IMG/VR virus record: IMGVR_UViG_3300042477_000769
Reading direction: 5' to 3' (one strand)
DNA from: a virus
Taxonomy: Duplodnaviria > Caudoviricetes
DNA length: 64,000 nucleotides
Shown here: positions 27 to 40,953 of the stretch, in pieces
Layout of the letters: each line of letters begins with the position of its first letter
Numbering within the stretch: position 1 is the first letter of the stretch
Program-made: the position numbers and the translations under genes
Notes under the pieces: generated by a model
Told to the model about the DNA's origin: nothing
Databases searched by the model: none
What the model saw: only the letters and a program-made list of their open reading frames with translations

Positions 27-680
27 GTGCGGTTTAAGAAACATTCTGCACCTTCTATGGAGGATTTAGACCAGTTACAAACTGAAATTATTCAAGATAA
101 AAATCCCGCCTTAGCTTATTTCTTTTCCACTGAATTTAGCTATAAACCGCATTTAATGCAACAAATTGTGTTAGAAGCCAAAAACCCCAAATATTGTTTT
201 TTATTTGCTCAAAATATTAAAAATTGCGATATAAAAGCTCTGCAAAAAATAGTTGTCGAATCTAATAATACTAAATATATTTGTAAATTTGCGTGTTTTG
301 TACTAGAAGCAGAGATAAAGCCATTAGAGCAAATTATTTTGACCTCGAAAAATGTTAGATATGCTCATATGCTACTGAAACATGTAAAAGGCACCAATAT
401 TTTAGACATTAAAAATATTATTTTGACTTCTGAAAAACCTAGATATTTATTTGAATTAGCTAAACACACTAAAGATCCAAAAGATCTGGCTCAAATTGAA
501 GATTTGATTATCAAAGCCAATTCTTTTACCTATATGAGGTTAATGGCGGAAAAAATTAAAGGAGCCAATATAGATAAATTAGAACAGGCCATTTTAGATA
601 CCCACAATATTCCAGAGATTAAAAAATTTGCTAGATATGTAAAACGGTCTAAAATGAAAAATTTTCTGATAGTTTTATGA
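27..680 (+). CDS. Alpha-helical tandem-repeat protein (~28-aa repeats x6)
   Basis: Repeated units such as IKPLEQIILTSKNVRYAHMLLKHVKGTN / IDKLEQAILDTHNIPEIKKFARYVK; the stop TGA (678-680) is partly supplied by the IS left end. Confidence 0.6.
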   Translation: MRFKKHSAPSMEDLDQLQTEIIQDKNPALAYFFSTEFSYKPHLMQQIVLEAKNPKYCFLFAQNIKNCDIKALQKIVVESNNTKYICKFACFVLEAEIKPLEQIILTSKNVRYAHMLLKHVKGTNILDIKNIILTSEKPRYLFELAKHTKDPKDLAQIEDLIIKANSFTYMRLMAEKIKGANIDKLEQAILDTHNIPEIKKFARYVKRSKMKNFLIVL

Positions 681-2015
681 TCTCCTCGCCAGAATACCCA
701 TAGCCTTGTGCTATGGGATGAATGGCGCACCTCCCTGTAACTTTCGATAAGTTTAATAGATAGTAAATTTTTACATCTTTTACTTTTTTGTGTAAAAATA
801 TGCATACTATGAAATATAGTTATGCAGAAAGTGCTTAAAGGTTATAAATATCGTATCTACCCCACTGAGGAACAAAAGAAATTTTTGTCTCAACAGTTTG
901 GATCTGTAAGATGGATCTATAATCATTTTCTTGCAAAACGTAAAGATGATTACCTTAACAATAAAAAAACATTAAACTATCATGATGATGCAAAAGCTCT
1001 TACTGAATTAAAATCTCAAGATGGTTATGAATGGTTATATAATATTAATTCTCAAACGCTTCAATCGGCTTTAAGAAATTTAGATTCCGCATATTTAAGA
1101 TTCTTTAAAAAGCAAGCTAGATTTCCTAACTTTCATAAAAAATCTAATCGGCAGTCTATTAAAATTCCACAGCATTTTAAAGTTGTTAGCAATTATTTGC
1201 ATATTCCAAAACTTAAAACTACTATAAAAATTAAACTTCATCAAAAACTACCAGAAAATAAAGAGTGTCTTTTTATTTCTAGAAATCCTTCTGGTGAATA
1301 TTATGCTGTTTTTCTTTGCGAAGTAGAAGTACAAGAACTACCAAAAAATAATATTTCTATAGGAATAGACTTAGGTCTAAAAGATTTAGTAATTACCTCT
1401 GAAGGAGCAGTTTTTCAAAATCATAAATTCTATAGAGCTTCAGAAAAGCAGCTAAAGTTTCAACAAATAAAATTATCTCGTAAGAAAAAAGGTTCTAAAA
1501 ATAGAAATAAACAACGAATCAAAATAGCTAAATTATATCAAAAAGTTTCTAATAAAAGATCAGATGAGTTACATAAGATAACTCATCAGCTAGTTAGCGA
1601 AAACCAAGTTATCATAGCCGAGAGTTTATCAGTTAAAAATATGATTAAAAATCATAAATTAGCAAAAAACATTCAAGATGCGTCTTGGGGAGAATTGATA
1701 AGACAGATAGAATATAAATCTAAATGGTACGGTAGAACTTTTCATCAGATAGATAAATTTTTTCCAAGTAGTAAAACTTGTAATTCTTGTCAATTTGTGA
1801 TTGATGTGTTACCTCTAAATATTAGAGAGTGGGATTGCCCAAAATGCAATCGGCATCATGACAGAGATTTAAATGCTGCTTTGAATATCAAAGATAAAGG
1901 TTTAAAAGACTTGGGGTTATGGAACGTAACCCCGCATCAAAAACTTAGTGAGGCGTCAGCAATAGCTGAGTCTATGACCTAAGAAGCCACTACCTTTATG
2001 GTAGTGGTAGTTCAC
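679..2015 (+). mobile_element. IS200/IS605-family (TnpB-only, IS1341-type) element
   Basis: TTAT target (675-678) then left end GATCT..., LE hairpin CCCATAGC-cttgt-GCTATGGG (697-717), tnpB, RE hairpin CCACTACC-tttat-GGTAGTGG, terminal TCAC (2012-2015); no tnpA. Confidence 0.85.
822..1982 (+). CDS. tnpB: TnpB RNA-guided endonuclease
   Basis: N-terminal GYKYRIYPT HTH, RuvC motifs IGIDLGLK / IIAESLSVKNM / HDRDLNAA, Zn finger CNSC...CPKC. Confidence 0.95.
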   Translation: MQKVLKGYKYRIYPTEEQKKFLSQQFGSVRWIYNHFLAKRKDDYLNNKKTLNYHDDAKALTELKSQDGYEWLYNINSQTLQSALRNLDSAYLRFFKKQARFPNFHKKSNRQSIKIPQHFKVVSNYLHIPKLKTTIKIKLHQKLPENKECLFISRNPSGEYYAVFLCEVEVQELPKNNISIGIDLGLKDLVITSEGAVFQNHKFYRASEKQLKFQQIKLSRKKKGSKNRNKQRIKIAKLYQKVSNKRSDELHKITHQLVSENQVIIAESLSVKNMIKNHKLAKNIQDASWGELIRQIEYKSKWYGRTFHQIDKFFPSSKTCNSCQFVIDVLPLNIREWDCPKCNRHHDRDLNAALNIKDKGLKDLGLWNVTPHQKLSEASAIAESMT

Positions 2016-23676: not shown

Positions 23677-23703
23677 TATGGATTTTTTAGATAGTTCAAT
23701 AAA

Positions 23704-24921
23704 TTATAGAATAATATTCCATAACTTATTTTTATAAGGTTTTAATCTTATTGGCTGAACTAATACAGCCTCTATCCCATTGCTAAAAGCGTCTGGGATT
23801 TCCTTTCTTAATATATTATAAGAGCCATTTACATCAGCATTTATTGTTATTCCAGATTTAGATCTAAATAAACCTCTTGTTAATCTTCTTCCCATATATT
23901 TTTTATGCTTTTTAATAGACTCTAAATCTAGAAAACTACATTTACTAGTATAGCTTTCTTCTCTCTCTACAATATCTATTCCCTCTAAAGCACATTTATA
24001 TTTTAACATCTCAAAAAATTTCCGATGTGGAATATTGACAAAATTTTGATTATTTTTATCACCCATATTAGTCTCTTGTTTCCAGGATTTATTGTGTCCG
24101 ATAACTAATTTAGACACTCCATGAGAAACTAAATGATTAACTAAATATCGGCTAGCTTTATGCATATAATCAGATATTTTATCATTTCGCTTAGAAGTAA
24201 GTTTTTTAATTTGTTTTGAAGTTTTTTGCTCTCCTGTTAATTTAGATTGTAATTCAGATCGTTTTTTATTATAAAACTGATTTATAGATTTTAATGGCCC
24301 TCCTGGAATTATAATAGGAGACCCTTTTGTAAAGGTAACTGTTGCCAAATTAGCGACTCCAGGATCTAAAGCAGCAATAACAGTACCTTTAGATTTAGTT
24401 TTTTCGGTTTTATTATAGACTATTTCAACGGTATGGTACATATCACCTGGAGTGATTCTCACTTGACAAATATCTTTATGTAGAATTTTTGTTGGTAATG
24501 GTAATTCTGCAATCCCAGAAGGTGACATTTTTTTCTTAGATATGGCTTGAGAAGTAAAAATTAATAAATTTCTACCTTTAGTTTTATGCTTAAAACCTGG
24601 TAATTTTGGAGTAGAAGTAAATTTACTAGGGTTCTTCTTAAAAGATTTAAGGGCTTTAAAAAAGTTTTTAAAAGCATTATCAACTTGAATTAATACATGT
24701 TGAGCGACTTTAGCTGGTAAAGCTCGATAATCTATTTGTTTTTCTAAAGCGAACTGCTTATCTAAGGCATGATATCCTAGGTAAGTTCTAGTCATTTCAA
24801 AATGTTTTCTAAATGCATAGACAGCAGAATTATAAAGATTCTTTGATAAAAACAACTTATAATCAATAAGTTTTCCTTTGAAGGATTTTTTATTTATTCT
24901 ATGTCTTTCTACTAACTGCAT
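23704..24921 (-). CDS. tnpB: TnpB-family RNA-guided endonuclease (IS ends not identified)
   Basis: SKNLYNSA, ALDPGVANL, EESYTSKCS, NADVNGSYNI. Confidence 0.9.
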   Translation of the reverse strand: MQLVERHRINKKSFKGKLIDYKLFLSKNLYNSAVYAFRKHFEMTRTYLGYHALDKQFALEKQIDYRALPAKVAQHVLIQVDNAFKNFFKALKSFKKNPSKFTSTPKLPGFKHKTKGRNLLIFTSQAISKKKMSPSGIAELPLPTKILHKDICQVRITPGDMYHTVEIVYNKTEKTKSKGTVIAALDPGVANLATVTFTKGSPIIIPGGPLKSINQFYNKKRSELQSKLTGEQKTSKQIKKLTSKRNDKISDYMHKASRYLVNHLVSHGVSKLVIGHNKSWKQETNMGDKNNQNFVNIPHRKFFEMLKYKCALEGIDIVEREESYTSKCSFLDLESIKKHKKYMGRRLTRGLFRSKSGITINADVNGSYNILRKEIPDAFSNGIEAVLVQPIRLKPYKNKLWNIIL

Positions 24922-33021: not shown

Positions 33022-33384
33022 ATGAAAGATAATAATAAAAATAACAGGAGAAATTCCTCGAAAAAGGCATCGAAAGGGGGTGAATCTAGCCAGATCTTAG
33101 TCAACGATCAATTCGCACACATTGAAGCTGTGCAAGCTCAACCTTTAGAGGTTAAAGTTTATAATAATAACTTTGATAAAGCGCTTAAAGCTTTCCGAGC
33201 CTTAGTTCAAAAAGAAAGAGTACTCTCCGATTTTAAAGAAAAACAAACTTACGAAAAGCCCTCTGATAGACGTCGGAGAAAACGTAATGAAGCCAAAAGA
33301 AAGAAACATGAGTCAACTTTCAAAAATACTACTAAAAGTAGTAAATATCGGCCTCAAAAAAACTCTGACTCTAATCAAAGTTAG
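33022..33384 (+). CDS. rpsU: Ribosomal protein bS21 homolog with N- and C-terminal extensions
   Basis: VKVYNNNFDKALKAFRALVQKERVLSDFKEKQTYEKPSDRRRRKR. Confidence 0.85.
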   Translation: MKDNNKNNRRNSSKKASKGGESSQILVNDQFAHIEAVQAQPLEVKVYNNNFDKALKAFRALVQKERVLSDFKEKQTYEKPSDRRRRKRNEAKRKKHESTFKNTTKSSKYRPQKNSDSNQS

Positions 33385-33389
33385 GTAAT

Positions 33390-34028
33390 ATGTCAAACAT
33401 TGGAAAAATTAAGGTTTATAAAAATAAAGCTAGAGAAGTTCCTGAAAAGTTTATAGCTTATGTTCCTCAATATCAAGCATTAGGTATTGAGCCTCATGAA
33501 TATAAATCCCCCAATATGGGGACAGAAACATATCTAACGGTTAAAAAAACAACATCAGAACAAAAACCCCCTGTCATGGTAAGACAACCCTATGCAGAAG
33601 CAGTGCCTTCTCCAGTAGGGAGAGGTCGCGGTCCGTTGCCTAACATTGGAAACAATGTGGAGCAATCCTGGTCAGGAGTGGATGAAGAATTAATAGATGA
33701 TGTTTCTTTAGACCCTAATCATCCAATGATAGACAATAATGAATACGTTTCTAATAAGGCGTTAGGACTGCCGCCTTCATTAGAATCTCCTGCTAAGCCA
33801 GCTGAACATAATTCTCCATTAATGGAAACTCTTCAAGATTTAGAAGAAGATAATTATATTTTATTTTTGAAAAATTCACCTTTATGCTCAGGACCATTAG
33901 AGTATGTGCAAGAACAAACTACTGCTTTAGTGTTTGGAGAACATGAATCTTTCAAAAATACTCTTTTTTCATTAGATGATATTTTAGTATTCAAACGAAT
34001 AAAATTAAAAGTCGGAGTATTTCTCTAA
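33390..34028 (+). CDS. Hypothetical protein
   Basis: Pro-rich ORF in operon. Confidence 0.6.
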   Translation: MSNIGKIKVYKNKAREVPEKFIAYVPQYQALGIEPHEYKSPNMGTETYLTVKKTTSEQKPPVMVRQPYAEAVPSPVGRGRGPLPNIGNNVEQSWSGVDEELIDDVSLDPNHPMIDNNEYVSNKALGLPPSLESPAKPAEHNSPLMETLQDLEEDNYILFLKNSPLCSGPLEYVQEQTTALVFGEHESFKNTLFSLDDILVFKRIKLKVGVFL

Positions 34029-34041
34029 TATCCGATCAGAG

Positions 34042-34833
34042 GTGAATGTGGAACAACGCAAAGCGTCAGAAGTTCTTCTAGAATTAGAAGCTAAAGTGAA
34101 TGCTATTCTAGATATTATTAGAACTCAAGATTTAAATAATAAGATTATTTCTAATAAATTGAACTCTACTATTCAATTATTAGAGAAATTAAATTCTGCA
34201 CCACCTGCACCTCCTAAAATTGAAGCAATTAATACTTTACCCACATCCACACACACACCTGCGCCTACGTCTTTTTCTGAGCGTGAAATACCTATTTCGG
34301 CCGAAAATAAAATCTCGGTAGAAGAGGCGCCTAAAGGTTTTAGAAGAAATTCTCGACCAGAAACTTTTGCTGGTGATGATTCTTTCTTACCAGAAAATAA
34401 TAAATATCCAGTACAAGTGCCCAAAATGTCCAACCAGCCTCCTCCAGGGAGGGCCGTAGAAGAAGTATCTGTTCCTAAAAAAACAGTTAAAAACTCTAAA
34501 AATTTATCAGAAAATACTACAGAATCAGTAGTATTAAATTCAGAAAATTTAAATGCAGTTCCAGTCTCTCAACGAGTAGTTAATGCTCATGGGAAATCAT
34601 TATTTTTAGCAGATGTGGAAGTTATTGACTTAAAAAGCATGCAATCAGTTTCTAAGACTAGAACTAATGGTACAGGAAAATGGTCAGCCTCTTTGCCTGT
34701 AGGGAATTATAGAGTTTTTATTAGAAAATTAGATTCTGCTACTAAAGAAAAATTGGAAGTAAAACAAGATATTGTAGTAGATGGTCAACAATCTCCATTA
34801 GAATTATCAGTAATTATTATTAAATCTCAGTAA
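34042..34833 (+). CDS. Hypothetical protein: coiled coil, disordered linker, C-terminal beta-sandwich
   Basis: KTRTNGTGKWSASLPVGNYRVFI resembles carboxypeptidase-regulatory/Cna-like folds. Confidence 0.55.
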   Translation: MNVEQRKASEVLLELEAKVNAILDIIRTQDLNNKIISNKLNSTIQLLEKLNSAPPAPPKIEAINTLPTSTHTPAPTSFSEREIPISAENKISVEEAPKGFRRNSRPETFAGDDSFLPENNKYPVQVPKMSNQPPPGRAVEEVSVPKKTVKNSKNLSENTTESVVLNSENLNAVPVSQRVVNAHGKSLFLADVEVIDLKSMQSVSKTRTNGTGKWSASLPVGNYRVFIRKLDSATKEKLEVKQDIVVDGQQSPLELSVIIIKSQ

Positions 34834-34905
34834 ACTGCTACTGCCTTTATGGCAGTGACTTTTTTAGGCCATAGATAAGGCTATGGGTATTCTGGCGAAG
34901 AAGTT
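34830..34905 (-). mobile_element. 76-bp miniature non-autonomous IS200/IS605 derivative (LE fused to RE)
   Basis: 22/22 identity of 34877-34898 (rc) to IS left end 686-707; adjoining RE-like CCTAAAAAAGTCACTGCC-ATAAA-GGCAGTAGCAGTTTAC; TTAT target at 34906-34909 (rc). Confidence 0.75.
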
Positions 34906-34914
34906 ATAAACTAT

Positions 34915-35181
34915 ATGGAATCTTTAATTGAATCCTTAATTAATCTTTCGGAAGAAGAACAACAAAACTTTCCATTTAAAGTGGGTGATCATTGTATAAT
35001 TAATGACTGTAAGCTATTTCACCCAGGCTTAGTAAATCAGAAGGCTATTGTAGTAAAAATTGGAAAATTACCATTTGATTTTATTAAAGTTGCTAGAATA
35101 ATAGCGGAACAACATACAGTTCCAGGCTATACTAGTTGTTTTGAGTGGGATATTGTTCCAGAGTTATTAACTCATATTTAG
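34915..35181 (+). CDS. Small hypothetical protein (SH3/KOW-like)
   Basis: FKVGDHCII...AIVVKIG. Confidence 0.45.
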   Translation: MESLIESLINLSEEEQQNFPFKVGDHCIINDCKLFHPGLVNQKAIVVKIGKLPFDFIKVARIIAEQHTVPGYTSCFEWDIVPELLTHI

Positions 35182-35192
35182 TAAAGGCTATT

Positions 35193-35840
35193 ATGCAAAA
35201 ATTTAAAGTTATTGTAGCTGATCCGCCATGGTCTTTTAAAGATACATTAAAAATGTCTGATGTTAAAAGAAGCGCGGAAGCTAATTATCAGATCATGTCA
35301 TTACATAATATAAAAACTTTACCGATTCATGAGTTAATAGATTCGGAAGGAGCTATTTTAGCGTTATGGGTACCCTCTTCCTTGTTAAAGGAAGGATTAG
35401 AAACTATGGAAGCTTGGGGGTTTCAACAAAAGCAAACTTATATTTGGGTAAAAACAAAAAAGCATCCTTTTAAAGATTTTTTAAAATCAAAAGATAAATT
35501 AACAGATTTAATGAAGGTGCCGTTATCCATTATTAATGGATTATTAGCTTTTGGTATGGGTCGCTTATTTAGGCAAACTCATGAAATTTGCTTAGTTGGC
35601 ACTAGTAACAATAAAATATACCAACAATTACAGAATAAATCTCAACGCTCTGTTAGTTTAGCTCCTAATTTAAAACATTCAGCTAAGCCGGAAGCTTTGC
35701 AAGATTCATTAGAGATGATGTTTCCTAATGCTAATAAATTAGAATTATTCGCTCGACGTCAACGCCCTAATTGGACATGTCTTGGTAATGAAGTATGTCA
35801 AGGAGAAGATATTCGAGATTCCTTAATTAAATTAAAATAA
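35193..35840 (+). CDS. MT-A70-family N6-adenine methyltransferase (ORF track start 35145)
   Basis: VIVADPPWSF, LALWVP, AWGF..KQTYIWVK, HSAKPE, LELFARR. Confidence 0.9.
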   Translation: MQKFKVIVADPPWSFKDTLKMSDVKRSAEANYQIMSLHNIKTLPIHELIDSEGAILALWVPSSLLKEGLETMEAWGFQQKQTYIWVKTKKHPFKDFLKSKDKLTDLMKVPLSIINGLLAFGMGRLFRQTHEICLVGTSNNKIYQQLQNKSQRSVSLAPNLKHSAKPEALQDSLEMMFPNANKLELFARRQRPNWTCLGNEVCQGEDIRDSLIKLK

Positions 35841-35852
35841 TTGGCTTGACCT

Positions 35853-37119
35853 GTCAATTACCACCAGCACAAGGCTGGTGGCTTGTAAGTAGCATCGCTG
35901 CTCCTACCATAGGCTGATTGACTTCAGCCCCATGGGACAGCTGATAGCTATCCCATGCTCGTCTGCTAATATTTCTACTAGCATTTAAGTCTGCATTTAG
36001 TTTAAAACTACATCCTTGACAACAAAAACTAACCTGAGTCTTCCTGTTTTTCTTATCAACATAACCGCATTTACTGCACTGTTGACTCGTATAAGCAGGA
36101 TTAACATGTACTACTTGTATGCCTTTAGCTTGACCTTTATAAATCAGAAATTGTTCTAATTGATAATAATTCCAACTATTCAAGGCTGATCTCTGAGGTT
36201 TTCTAACTTTTTGCCGTCTAATACCATTTAATTTTTCTAGTACTAGAGTGTCACCTGGATTTAAACTACTGATAATCTGTTTACTAATTTGATGGTTAAT
36301 GTCTGCTTTAAACCGTTTTTCTTTACCTGAAAGGTATTTAAGATGCCTTTTAGCAGATTGACTTCCACTTTGTTGTAATTTTCTTCTTAATGTTTTGTAC
36401 TTGTGACATATTGACTTAAGTTTACTTCCACAATAAAACTTATTATCTGAGGTAACCGCTAACTTTTTGATACCGCGATCAACTCCTAAAAATTTACCAT
36501 TAACCTTTATCTCTTCTTTCTCTTTCTCAAAAGAAACATGTAGGTAAACTTGGCCTTTTCTAATCAGAAGATCGGAGCTGGTGTATTTCCAATCAGTAAA
36601 GTAATGCTGATAATATCTAGGAATATCTAGCTTAATTTTCTTTCTACCAGAAAGCGTTAAAATAGATACTATTCCTTTGCGAATAGAATAGTTATTACAA
36701 TCTAGTCGAATCGCAGTTAATTTAGACTGCGGACATTTGCTATACTTATTTTTACTCTTAATACTTTTAAGAGCTTCTGCGGCTTTAGTTCTAGCAGAAA
36801 TAGCTAATTGAGACGGTAAGTTAAAGTTAGTTCGACACTCTTGGTAGGTTAATTTATGCAGTTTAATAGAGTTGGTTATTTTTTTTTGATACCCTACTTG
36901 ACACACCAGGTTAAAAGCAGCGGTATAAGCTTGCAGTGAAGGTAGAATTTCTTCTACCTTGACATCAAGTTTTAATTTGACCGTTCTATTTAACCTCATA
37001 TATAGTGATATATCTATTAATATAGAAAGTTTTATGTAAACGAAAATTTATTTAGATAACAGAAAGGGGATGCAATTCCTCCCACAGCACAAGGCTGAGG
37101 GTGTCCTTGCCTAAAGATC
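35853..37119 (-). mobile_element. IS200/IS605-family TnpB-only element
   Basis: Minus strand: TCAT target, LE GATCT..., hairpin CCCTCAGC-cttgt-GCTGTGGG; RE hairpin CCACCAGC-cttgt-GCTGGTGG, terminal TGAC. Confidence 0.85.
35854..36999 (-). CDS. tnpB: TnpB RNA-guided endonuclease
   Basis: LGVDRGIKKL, VLEKL, VNPAYTSQQCSKCG, CQGC, NADLNASRNI. Confidence 0.95.
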   Translation of the reverse strand: MRLNRTVKLKLDVKVEEILPSLQAYTAAFNLVCQVGYQKKITNSIKLHKLTYQECRTNFNLPSQLAISARTKAAEALKSIKSKNKYSKCPQSKLTAIRLDCNNYSIRKGIVSILTLSGRKKIKLDIPRYYQHYFTDWKYTSSDLLIRKGQVYLHVSFEKEKEEIKVNGKFLGVDRGIKKLAVTSDNKFYCGSKLKSICHKYKTLRRKLQQSGSQSAKRHLKYLSGKEKRFKADINHQISKQIISSLNPGDTLVLEKLNGIRRQKVRKPQRSALNSWNYYQLEQFLIYKGQAKGIQVVHVNPAYTSQQCSKCGYVDKKNRKTQVSFCCQGCSFKLNADLNASRNISRRAWDSYQLSHGAEVNQPMVGAAMLLTSHQPCAGGN

Positions 37120-37632
37120 ATGAGTAAAAAAACGTTACTATTAAATGCTTCGTATGAAGTATTATGTTTTATTCCAGAAAGAAAAGTTTGTAAACTTATC
37201 ATTAAAGATAAAGTGGAAGTTATTTCTGACTGGGATGATTATATCATTTGGGGTAAAGGAAAAGTTAGACACCCATCTATTTTACGATTAAAAACACATA
37301 TTAGAAGAAACTTTTTTAATTCTAATTTTAGTCGTAAAGCTCTGATTAAAAGAGATAAAAGTACTTGCCAATATTGTAGTAAAAAATTACCTGCGTCTCA
37401 AATAACTATTGACCATGTCCTTCCTCGGGCGCAAGGTGGTATTACTTCATTTACTAATTGTGTAGTATGTTGTCATACATGCAACAATAAAAAGGCTGAT
37501 AAAACTCCAGAACAAGCTAATATGGTGCTTTTAAAAAAGCCAACTCACCCTTCTTTTGCGACACATAATTATGTGTCAGACCCTCAAGAATATTGGCACC
37601 ATGATTGGGATGATTTCTTAGGATATAGCTGA
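37120..37632 (+). CDS. HNH endonuclease
   Basis: LLLNASYE, CQYC, TIDHVLPRAQGG...NCVVCCHTCNNKK. Confidence 0.92.
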   Translation: MSKKTLLLNASYEVLCFIPERKVCKLIIKDKVEVISDWDDYIIWGKGKVRHPSILRLKTHIRRNFFNSNFSRKALIKRDKSTCQYCSKKLPASQITIDHVLPRAQGGITSFTNCVVCCHTCNNKKADKTPEQANMVLLKKPTHPSFATHNYVSDPQEYWHHDWDDFLGYS

Positions 37633-37691
37633 AAAATTTAGATCATGCAATAATCCTATATACCTATACACCTAGATATATAGGATAAACT

Positions 37692-37937
37692 ATGATTAAA
37701 GAAAACTGTAATTGCATTGTGTGTGCTAAAGAGTTTGATCCAAACTTATTACATAGTGTCGCATTATCTGCGATTAACGCTACTAATTTTAAAGTTTGCC
37801 AAGCCTGCTTGGATAGTTCTGATCCTGCTGAAGATTATCAACAGGTTAGAGAAATTGTCTTTTCATATTTAAAATATGCGACTGCTAAAAATTTGTTTAG
37901 TGATGTCCATTCTATTCTGGAATCTAGAAAAAAATAA
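37692..37937 (+). CDS. Small zinc-finger protein
   Basis: CIVC...CQAC. Confidence 0.55.
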   Translation: MIKENCNCIVCAKEFDPNLLHSVALSAINATNFKVCQACLDSSDPAEDYQQVREIVFSYLKYATAKNLFSDVHSILESRKK

Positions 37938-40915: not shown

Positions 40916-40953
40916 GTGAACTACCACTACCATAAAAGTAGTGGCTTCTTAGG
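40916..40953 (-). mobile_element. Orphan copy of the IS right end found at 1978-2015
   Basis: rc = CCTAAGAAGCCACTACTTTTATGGTAGTGGTAGTTCAC, 37/38 identical to 1978-2015. Confidence 0.85.

Follow-up and report, generated by a model that had tools for sequence, protein, structure and literature searches.

Immediately behind gene X, the window (the whole 64-kb stretch of phage DNA that was analyzed) carries 76 bp on the minus strand (34830..34905) that look like the two ends of an IS200/IS605 transposon brought together. The question raised by this locus is whether the segment derives from a transposon at all and, if so, whether it can still move, serves the phage in some other way, or is simply left over. 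From direct reading, a 22-mer match, and folding, the segment is a terminal-only LE + RE derivative of an IS200/IS605 element. The fuller account developed below, that of a TnpB-type IS605 relic that decayed by deletion in situ, became fixed, and is probably immobile, is considered probable, with appreciable room for error.

The genomic setting

The window has a GC content of approximately 32% and its genes are tightly packed, nearly all of them on one strand. It encodes a family-B DNA polymerase with an inserted nuclease-like segment, an FtsK-like ATPase, a topoisomerase IA, Mre11/Rad50-like proteins, an MT-A70 methylase, and both HNH and LAGLIDADG endonucleases. The longest contig carrying window proteins is 259,050 nt in length, and a comparison with the INPHARED phage collection identified no DNA-level relative of the window.

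Gene X (34042..34833, plus strand) encodes a protein of 263 aa that matches CarboxypepD_reg weakly. The RE end of the 76-bp element contributes the gene's stop codon, TAA (34831-34833). A peptide-pattern search of IMG/VR for relatives of gene X identified none. Among its homologs, the C-terminus is variable, with zero to two residues past IIK; as a result, the KSQ end of gene X is uninformative as a test of the element boundary. Downstream of gene X lies an 88-aa ORF (34915..35181, plus strand) that is lineage-specific and missing in relatives at ~60% identity. The only far homolog of this ORF, in L061, occurs in another gene context. No Rfam match was obtained at the locus of the 76-bp element.

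Anatomy of the 76-bp element

Read on the minus strand, the locus begins with TTAT (34909-34906), the target and left cleavage tetranucleotide, which becomes TTTAT when position 34910 is included. The element itself follows from 34905 to 34830, its left part being AACTTCTTCGCCAG-AATA-CCCATAGCCTTATCTATGG-CCTAAAA and its right part AAAG-TCACTGCC-ATAAA-GGCAGTAG-CAGT-TTAC, after which the sequence continues with TGAG. The LE guide AATA (34888..34891) is read directly and is complementary to TTAT by the IS608 rule; the same guide, at the same 14-nt spacing, is present in the full-length element A of the window and in the related loci L001 and L053-L060. The LE inner hairpin, CCATAG-CCTTAT-CTATGG, occupies 34869..34886, and a remnant of tnpB, TCTATGGCCTAA, consisting of its last codons and stop codon, is found at 34864..34875, where it aligns to element A positions 1969-1980. 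The RE is made up of the guide AAAG (34859..34862; GAAG in element A), a hairpin TCACTGCC-ATAAA-GGCAGTAG (34838..34858) with six Watson-Crick pairs plus C.A and T.G, and the spacer CAGT with right cleavage site TTAC (34830..34837), which by direct reading correspond to TAGT TCAC in element A. Folding computations indicate that both hairpins form as single-stranded DNA with 6-bp stems, compared to 8 bp in the full relatives.

The window contains the 22-mer TCGCCAGAATACCCATAGCCTT at two places and no others, one being 686-707 on the plus strand and the other 34877-34898 on the minus strand, whereas shuffled sequences are expected to contain none. The initial annotation had described a TTAT target followed by an LE with this 22-nt identity and a retained hairpin, and that description is borne out by direct reading of the letters and by folding as single-stranded DNA. 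Its further statement that the LE is fused directly to an RE is correct insofar as both ends are present, but the 3' end of tnpB sits between them. There is no duplication of the flanks, there are no terminal inverted repeats, and 76 bp is too short to code. Anatomy and homology agree with the earlier view of a PATE-like, non-autonomous (non-coding) IS200/IS605 derivative within a phage genome.

The target TTAT reads ATAA on the plus strand and would give the stop codon of gene X in an empty site. Deletion of 34830-34905 gives ...AAA TCT CAA TAA ACT ATA TGG and the gene X protein still ends in KSQ*. The letters confirm the earlier observation that removal of the insert restores CAA TAA and leaves the flanking protein unchanged, though this is a built-in consequence. 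Since the right end TTAC resembles the target TTAT, insertion would regenerate both the last Gln codon and the stop codon of gene X, and KSQ* is kept upon excision. The unchanged protein is an automatic outcome and thus not independent evidence for an insertion.

A family of ends and its guide rule

Besides the LE + RE relic, the 64 kb hold at least three TnpB elements, the third of which lacks family ends, and one solo RE. Element A (679..2015, plus strand) is a full TnpB-only element with an LE that follows TTAT, an LE guide of AATA, and an RE of the form GAAG...TAGT TCAC. Element B (35853..37119, minus strand) is likewise TnpB-only and belongs to the same end family; its LE follows TCAT with the guide GACA, and its RE has the guide CAAG and the end TGAC. 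The solo RE (40916..40953, minus strand) shares 97% identity with the element A RE and is without an LE. Another solo RE was seen in L059. The third TnpB (23704-24921) was set aside, as it has no ends of the family to which the 76-bp element belongs.

The family was sampled through 42 TnpB relatives from IMG/VR, the close relative L001, and eight more LEs from JGI metagenomes. The pairing scheme G1:C2, G2:C1, and G4:C4 between guide and cleavage tetranucleotides has been described for IS608 (He et al. 2011, PMC3201880) and was tested in about 30 REs and 24 LEs, none of which breaks it. The rule holds in 30/30 related REs, which present five guide/cleavage pairs (GAAT/TCAA, GAAG/TCAC, GAAA/TCAT, GAAC/TCAG, and CAAG/TGAC), and it is obeyed by the LE pairs AATA/TTAT, GACA/TCAT of element B, and AAAT/TTAA of L052. 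Both pairs of the 76-bp element fit as well, AATA/TTAT at the LE and AAAG/TTAC at the RE, the latter being the sole case of A:T at G1:C2 among the family REs. Thus, the guide rule is real in this end family, and the proposal that the change from GAAG/TCAC to AAAG/TTAC conforms to an IS608-type rule can be extended from one element to the family as a whole.

The REs of the family share the layout guide(4)-stem(8)-loop-stem(8)-spacer(4-5)-cleavage(4), to which the RE of the 76-bp element conforms. The A-type LEs, namely those of element A, the 76-bp element, L001, and L053-L060, all start right after (T)TTAT (11/11) at unrelated loci, which fixes the left boundary of the 76-bp element.

Uneven divergence of the two ends

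The two ends of the 76-bp element have not diverged to the same extent. Over 34 nt that take in the TTTAT, the LE agrees with the L001 element at all but one (33/34). Compared with its counterpart in element A, the RE has 10 differences in 35 positions, and it is at most 25/35 identical to any RE found. The difference between one change in 34 nt and ten in 35 is significant (Fisher p = 0.006). Among the RE differences are a stem pair changed from A-T to G-C, three loop changes, a G to A change at guide position 1, and a C to T change at cleavage position 2. The compensatory nature of the stem change, which had been pointed out before, is seen in the alignment; the reported loop inversion from TTTAT to ATAAA is also exact, as the three changes produce a perfect reverse complement. 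In a simulation of ten random substitutions, the guide/cleavage double change arose in 3.4% of trials, and jointly with a compensated stem pair in 0.6%.

Taken together, the uneven divergence and the compensated RE changes suggest a parent RE that was distinct and functional as opposed to one that decayed neutrally in place; at the level of sequence, the evidence points to the former. A distinct RE is consistent with the modularity of the family, since L057 and L053 have an A-type LE joined to a B-type RE. The parent RE was not found by pattern scans of IMG/VR, a looser RE pattern run against IMG/VR and the GTDB genomes returned unrelated hairpins only, and the LE 21-mer had no occurrence in the GTDB species genomes.

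Proposed history of the element

The segment TCTATGGCCTAA matches the tnpB 3' end of element A, TCTATGACCTAA, in alignment with the stop codon included, and 12 nt of the gene are kept. Because of this tnpB remnant, the 76 bp are an internal-deletion derivative of a tnpB-bearing element and not a pair of hairpins that arose de novo. The pentanucleotide CTATG is shared by the LE hairpin, where it lies in the 3' arm, and the 3' end of tnpB. The deletion junction lies at or beside this microhomology, and the LE hairpin may be chimeric with a 3' arm that comes from the tnpB 3' end. The exact junction cannot be placed because the parent is unsampled.

The 76 bp would then be the leftover of a TnpB-carrying IS200/IS605 (IS1341-type) element. 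On the minus strand, a TnpA-mediated, single-strand 'peel and paste' event is envisaged to have placed it 3' of TTAT, with the insertion point coinciding exactly with the gene X stop codon. The core would have been lost later, most likely in situ, by deletion at or near the CTATG microhomology, leaving the first ~44 nt of the LE joined to the terminal ~32-41 nt on the other side, which hold the tnpB stop codon and the RE. There is a precedent for such a contraction in Haloquadratum, where repeat-mediated deletion reduces a TnpB element of 1.5 kb to a terminal-only PATE of 52 bp (PMC3119063). The parent was probably not element A but an unsampled member of the family in which an A/L001-type LE was combined with a co-adapted RE (AAAG/TTAC, with G-C in the stem). 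In-situ deletion is indistinguishable from arrival of the element in its present size, since neither an empty site nor one occupied by a full-length element was found.

Fixation and the search for copies and empty sites

With an identical flanking protein and the 88-aa ORF serving as the query on all recorded contigs, 11 loci from approximately 10 samples were recovered. These are letter-identical over 34800-34940 and all are filled. Contigs from four more lake runs (X5-X8, over 33800-37700) also bridge the insert without differences, and no joint that skips 34830-34905 was present in them, although contigs alone were available and rare variants are therefore invisible. Loose ends at the locus in X5-X8 (34877 and 34910) were accounted for by the LEs of full elements only. 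The exact junction of an empty site would read TCTCAATAAACTAT or, around the same point, TCTCAATAAACTATATGG, and the LE/RE junction sequence of the element itself is CTATGGCCTAAAAAAGTCACTG.

A second copy was found neither in the 64-kb window, which represents part of a genome of ~259 kb, nor in IMG/VR (three pattern scans), nor in five related phage contigs (G001-G005). A scan of a JGI subset produced eight full-type LEs and no copy of the 76-bp element; that scan missed JGI contigs known to hold this phage, and the absence of a second copy is weaker than it looks because the JGI collection is evidently without samples holding the phage. In the searched data, the element is a fixed, single-copy relic.

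In the relatives at ~60% protein identity, L006 and L008, the methylase gene comes right after gene X, and the 76-bp element, the 88-aa ORF, and element B are all missing. For this reason, the segment is regarded as lineage-specific. An exact empty site was not found in L006 or L008, which miss the 88-aa ORF and element B as well. The initial annotation had called for a search for further copies and for the empty site, neither of which turned up in the collections or the runs, and had taken the nonexistence of an empty allele as an argument against its own reading. Formally, no empty allele was found, but the gap in available relatives, which extends from 100% down to ~62% protein identity, keeps this from being decisive.

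Lost LE features and the supply of TnpA

In all full relatives, the LE hairpin is followed by ATGAA and, beyond it, by a strand complementary to the 5 nt that precede the guide. The resulting outer LE helix of 5 bp shows covariation in 3/5 pairs among 11 full LEs and is 85% paired, compared to 34-48% in slid controls. The dinucleotide that follows the LE foot varies with guide position 1: an A there goes with AT, and a G, as in element B, with AG. In the 76-bp element, CC stands where AT is expected and the outer strand TGGCG is gone, so the LE is no longer complete. The RE loop is also without the T-rich form of the other family REs. In IS608, the equivalents of the lost LE positions are needed for stable and robust transpososome formation (PMC3201880).

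As the deletion took the conserved LE 3' flank, the relic is probably no longer a TnpA substrate. This expectation is an analogy with IS608 biochemistry, since the guide/cleavage pairs and hairpins are formally intact and the 52-bp PATEs of Haloquadratum appear mobile (PMC3119063). The two signs by which PATE mobility is recognized, namely several copies or a presence/absence polymorphism, were not seen in the data searched. With no second copy, no empty allele, and the deletion of conserved LE features, the earlier suggestion of an element that is possibly still mobilizable is left unsupported and, by the same analogy, somewhat disfavored. If the element were to circularize, the circle junction would read ...GCAGTTTAC joined to AACTTCTTCGCC.

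A search by tblastn identified no TnpA in the 64-kb window and, among the best 120 TnpA homolog clusters, none is found on the 259,050-nt contig. Sources of TnpA do exist among relatives of the end family. In L053 and L057, both phage-like contigs from freshwater (lakes), an identical LE 21-mer is followed by a Y1 TnpA (134-139 aa; PF01797, E 3.6e-36) and TnpB. An R2K ATP-grasp protein and an RNA ligase with a PHA02142 OB fold are among the phage-type genes of L053. On the IMG/VR contig of L001 there is, in addition, an IS605 element with both tnpA and tnpB and the right end GAAG...TAGT TCAC, and L001-type LEs or the element itself co-occur with the phage of the window in runs X5, X7, and X8.

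Alternative explanations

A chance resemblance, or an ordinary pair of intergenic hairpins with no link to transposons, could be entertained on the grounds that the feature is short, and on those grounds only. Against it stand the 22-nt exact match where shuffles predict zero, the start of the LE exactly past TTTAT as in 10 other LEs of the family, an RE whose architecture and guide obey the family pattern, the remnant with the tnpB stop codon, and relatives that are without the segment. This explanation is effectively refuted and very little probability can be assigned to it. A more substantial competitor is an active or recent non-autonomous PATE that transposed at its present size into TTAT and could still move, with a Y1 TnpA supplied in trans by a co-infecting phage, by the host, or from elsewhere in the genome. 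The complementarity of target and guide at both ends, the folding of both subterminal hairpins, and the compensated RE changes would all be expected of it; moreover, the identical LE 21-mer occurs in L053/L057 in an autonomous element that has a Y1 TnpA, a tnpA + tnpB IS605 is carried by the IMG/VR contig of L001, L001-type LEs are found in the same runs (X5, X7, and X8) as the phage, and the Haloquadratum PATEs, at 52 bp of terminal sequence, appear mobile (PMC3119063). It is nonetheless unlikely. The 76-bp element is a singleton in all searches and no empty allele was present at the 11 loci or in the four runs; the LE 3' flank (AT and the outer helix), conserved through covariation in all full relatives, is missing; the stems are cut to 6 bp and the RE loop is not T-rich; and neither the window nor the 259,050-nt contig, as judged from the best 120 homolog clusters, has a TnpA.

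The remaining alternative concerns the coding strand. On the plus strand, a stem-loop of seven pairs followed by AC-TTTTTT (34839..34865) begins 5 nt past the stop codon of gene X, and in a consensus scan 34839-34857 together with ACTTTTTTAG was called terminator-like. The relic might then have been retained as an intrinsic terminator or an RNA-stabilizing hairpin between gene X and the 88-aa ORF, in which case the G-to-A change and the extra A would reflect selection for a U-tract and not recognition by TnpA. The position of the call, the true T6 run (one of few in 20 kb), the predicted hairpin energy of -11 kcal/mol as RNA, and the invariance of the sequence over approximately 10 samples are consistent with this role, as is the fact that the guide change from GAAG to AAAG and a single inserted A are exactly what creates the T-run. 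Opposed to it, the fold is no better than that of shuffled sequences (z = -0.9), the scan returns terminator-like sites at about twice the shuffled rate in general, the relatives do without any such element at the junction, and the matching C-to-T change at the cleavage site and the kept LE are left unexplained. From its sequence, a terminator role is more doubtful than continued mobility, and may be treated as a minor rival that is compatible with a transposon origin. The decayed, in-situ-deleted relic is preferred over each of these alternatives.

Comparison with known systems and significance

Terminal-only IS605 derivatives, in the form of PATEs from archaea and bacteria, and covarying guide and cleavage motifs are already known (PMC3119063, PMC10055086, PMC3201880). 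Like the 52-bp PATEs of Haloquadratum walsbyi, which come from the TnpB-type ISHwa23 (Dyall-Smith et al. 2011, PMC3119063), the 76-bp element is a non-coding fusion of both ends, with near-terminal palindromes and neither inverted terminal repeats nor a target duplication. In contrast, the Haloquadratum PATEs are multi-copy with strain-specific insertions in an archaeal chromosome (PMC3119063), whereas the element described here is a fixed singleton in a bacterial megaphage with an LE structure that is partly deleted.

A second likeness is to ISGst of Geobacillus stearothermophilus (Meers et al. 2023, PMC10055086), where TnpB-only elements share their LE and RE with one tnpA-bearing member, the cleavage motifs (TAM/TEM) covary with DNA guides, and protein-free minimal derivatives occur. 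The ISGst PATEs often keep the omega-RNA and reside in a genome with a demonstrably active TnpA (PMC10055086); the 76-bp element retains only ~12 nt of tnpB and no omega-RNA scaffold, and the search of its window for a TnpA was negative.

As in IS608 of Helicobacter pylori (PMC3201880), the cleavage site is complementary to a tetranucleotide guide on the 5' side of the hairpin foot. The correspondence extends to detail, in that the RE pair AAAG/TTAC of the 76-bp element is exactly the LE pair of IS608, and the AT or AG that follows the LE foot in the family when guide position 1 is A or G is also observed at the LE and RE of IS608 (PMC3201880). The spacings differ: in the family there are 14 nt from cleavage site to LE guide and 8 nt from foot to RE end, the IS608 values, counted from the foot, being 19 and 10 nt. 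In addition, the family has an extra outer LE helix, hairpins of unrelated sequence, and, in this window, elements with tnpB only.

A further comparison is with REP and BIME sequences. These, which are associated with RAYT (TnpA-REP), are short extragenic hairpins related to IS200/IS605 ends that sometimes act as terminators or RNA stabilizers. They occur in many copies with a conserved tetranucleotide of the GTAG type, and the RAYT to which they are tied is domesticated and single-copy. The 76-bp element differs in having one copy, a clear LE/RE polarity, and a tnpB remnant.

The relic itself is of little import beyond its worth for annotation and as a marker. What it does indicate is that a lake megaphage lineage has been repeatedly colonized by one IS200/IS605 end family, that the ends of this family are modular and re-target through paired guide and cleavage changes, and that its elements insert neutrally at the stop and start codons of densely packed phage genes. 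A bolder proposal, and a long shot, is that the 76-mer and the solo REs (40916-40953 and in L059) are working parts and not debris. In one form, a TnpA encoded by phages could still be carrying a minimal PATE from one co-infecting lake megaphage to another; in the other, the phage could have come to need a transposon end that was exapted as a terminator or an RNA hairpin. If either were true, megaphages would represent a self-contained arena of IS605 end evolution, with modular shuffling of LE and RE and re-targeting by way of guide/cleavage pairs that covary. Whichever reading is adopted, the guide/cleavage pairs tabulated for the family and the outer LE helix with its covariation may serve as an aid in defining the TAMs of the associated TnpB nucleases and in testing phage-borne TnpA.

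Left ends and their exchange between family members

The left ends (LEs) of this IS605 end family share a 5-bp outer helix that encloses the guide, the tetranucleotide 5' of the hairpin foot which pairs with the cleavage site, together with the hairpin itself, and this helix covaries across subtypes. It is present in the window at 669–733 (plus strand) and 37065–37129 (minus strand), the LEs of the TnpB-only elements A and B, respectively, and at the related loci L001, L012, L015, L016, L023, L026, and L030. Whether AT or AG follows the hairpin foot on its 3' side changes with position 1 of the guide, as it does at the LE and right end (RE) of IS608.

Autonomous relatives encoding both tnpA and tnpB were found on two JGI contigs, Ga0214917_10007157 (L053) and Ga0078894_10073086 (L057). 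Both have an A-type LE joined to the RE of element B, a combination which indicates that ends have been exchanged between members of this end family. The L057 element also directly adjoins a copy, at 89% identity, of the third TnpB element of the window (23690–24893). The gene of this third element (23704–24921, minus strand) encodes OrfB_IS605 and Cas12f1-like TNB domains, and no ends of the A/B family were identified at it.

Solo right ends and a possible shortened form of element B

An RE without an LE (guide GAAG, hairpin, TAGT TCAC) is located at 40916–40953 (minus strand), shares 97% identity with its counterpart in element A, and takes up almost all of the 48-nt gap between a DnaG-zinc-finger gene and an Mre11-like gene. 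A second solo RE of the same composition lies approximately 400 nt downstream of the full element at locus L059, directly upstream of a gene start. Since homology begins approximately at the tnpB stop codon in both cases, the solo REs may have arisen repeatedly by deletion, or else through a one-ended event.

In contigs from two lake metagenome runs, X7 and X8, the ~78 nt on the RE side of element B are linked to the ~57 nt on its LE side (window position 35930 to 37063). This joint skips 1132 nt and reflects either a miniature element derived from B or an element that resembles B but has diverged in its interior.

Other genes of the phage

The phage encodes a full-length tmRNA (11817–12172, plus strand; Rfam RF00023, 62.9 bits, E = 3e-22). 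A ribosomal protein S21 homolog (33022–33384, plus strand; identical contigs carry PF01165 here in their precomputed annotation) is encoded two genes upstream of the 76-bp miniature element (34830–34905, minus strand). Between this transposon relic and an MT-A70 methylase gene is an 88-aa ORF (34915–35181, plus strand). Relatives at ~60% identity lack it, and only one homolog, a distant one, occurs among 5.8 billion proteins; the ORF is therefore a lineage-specific gene, acquired at the same junction as the relic.
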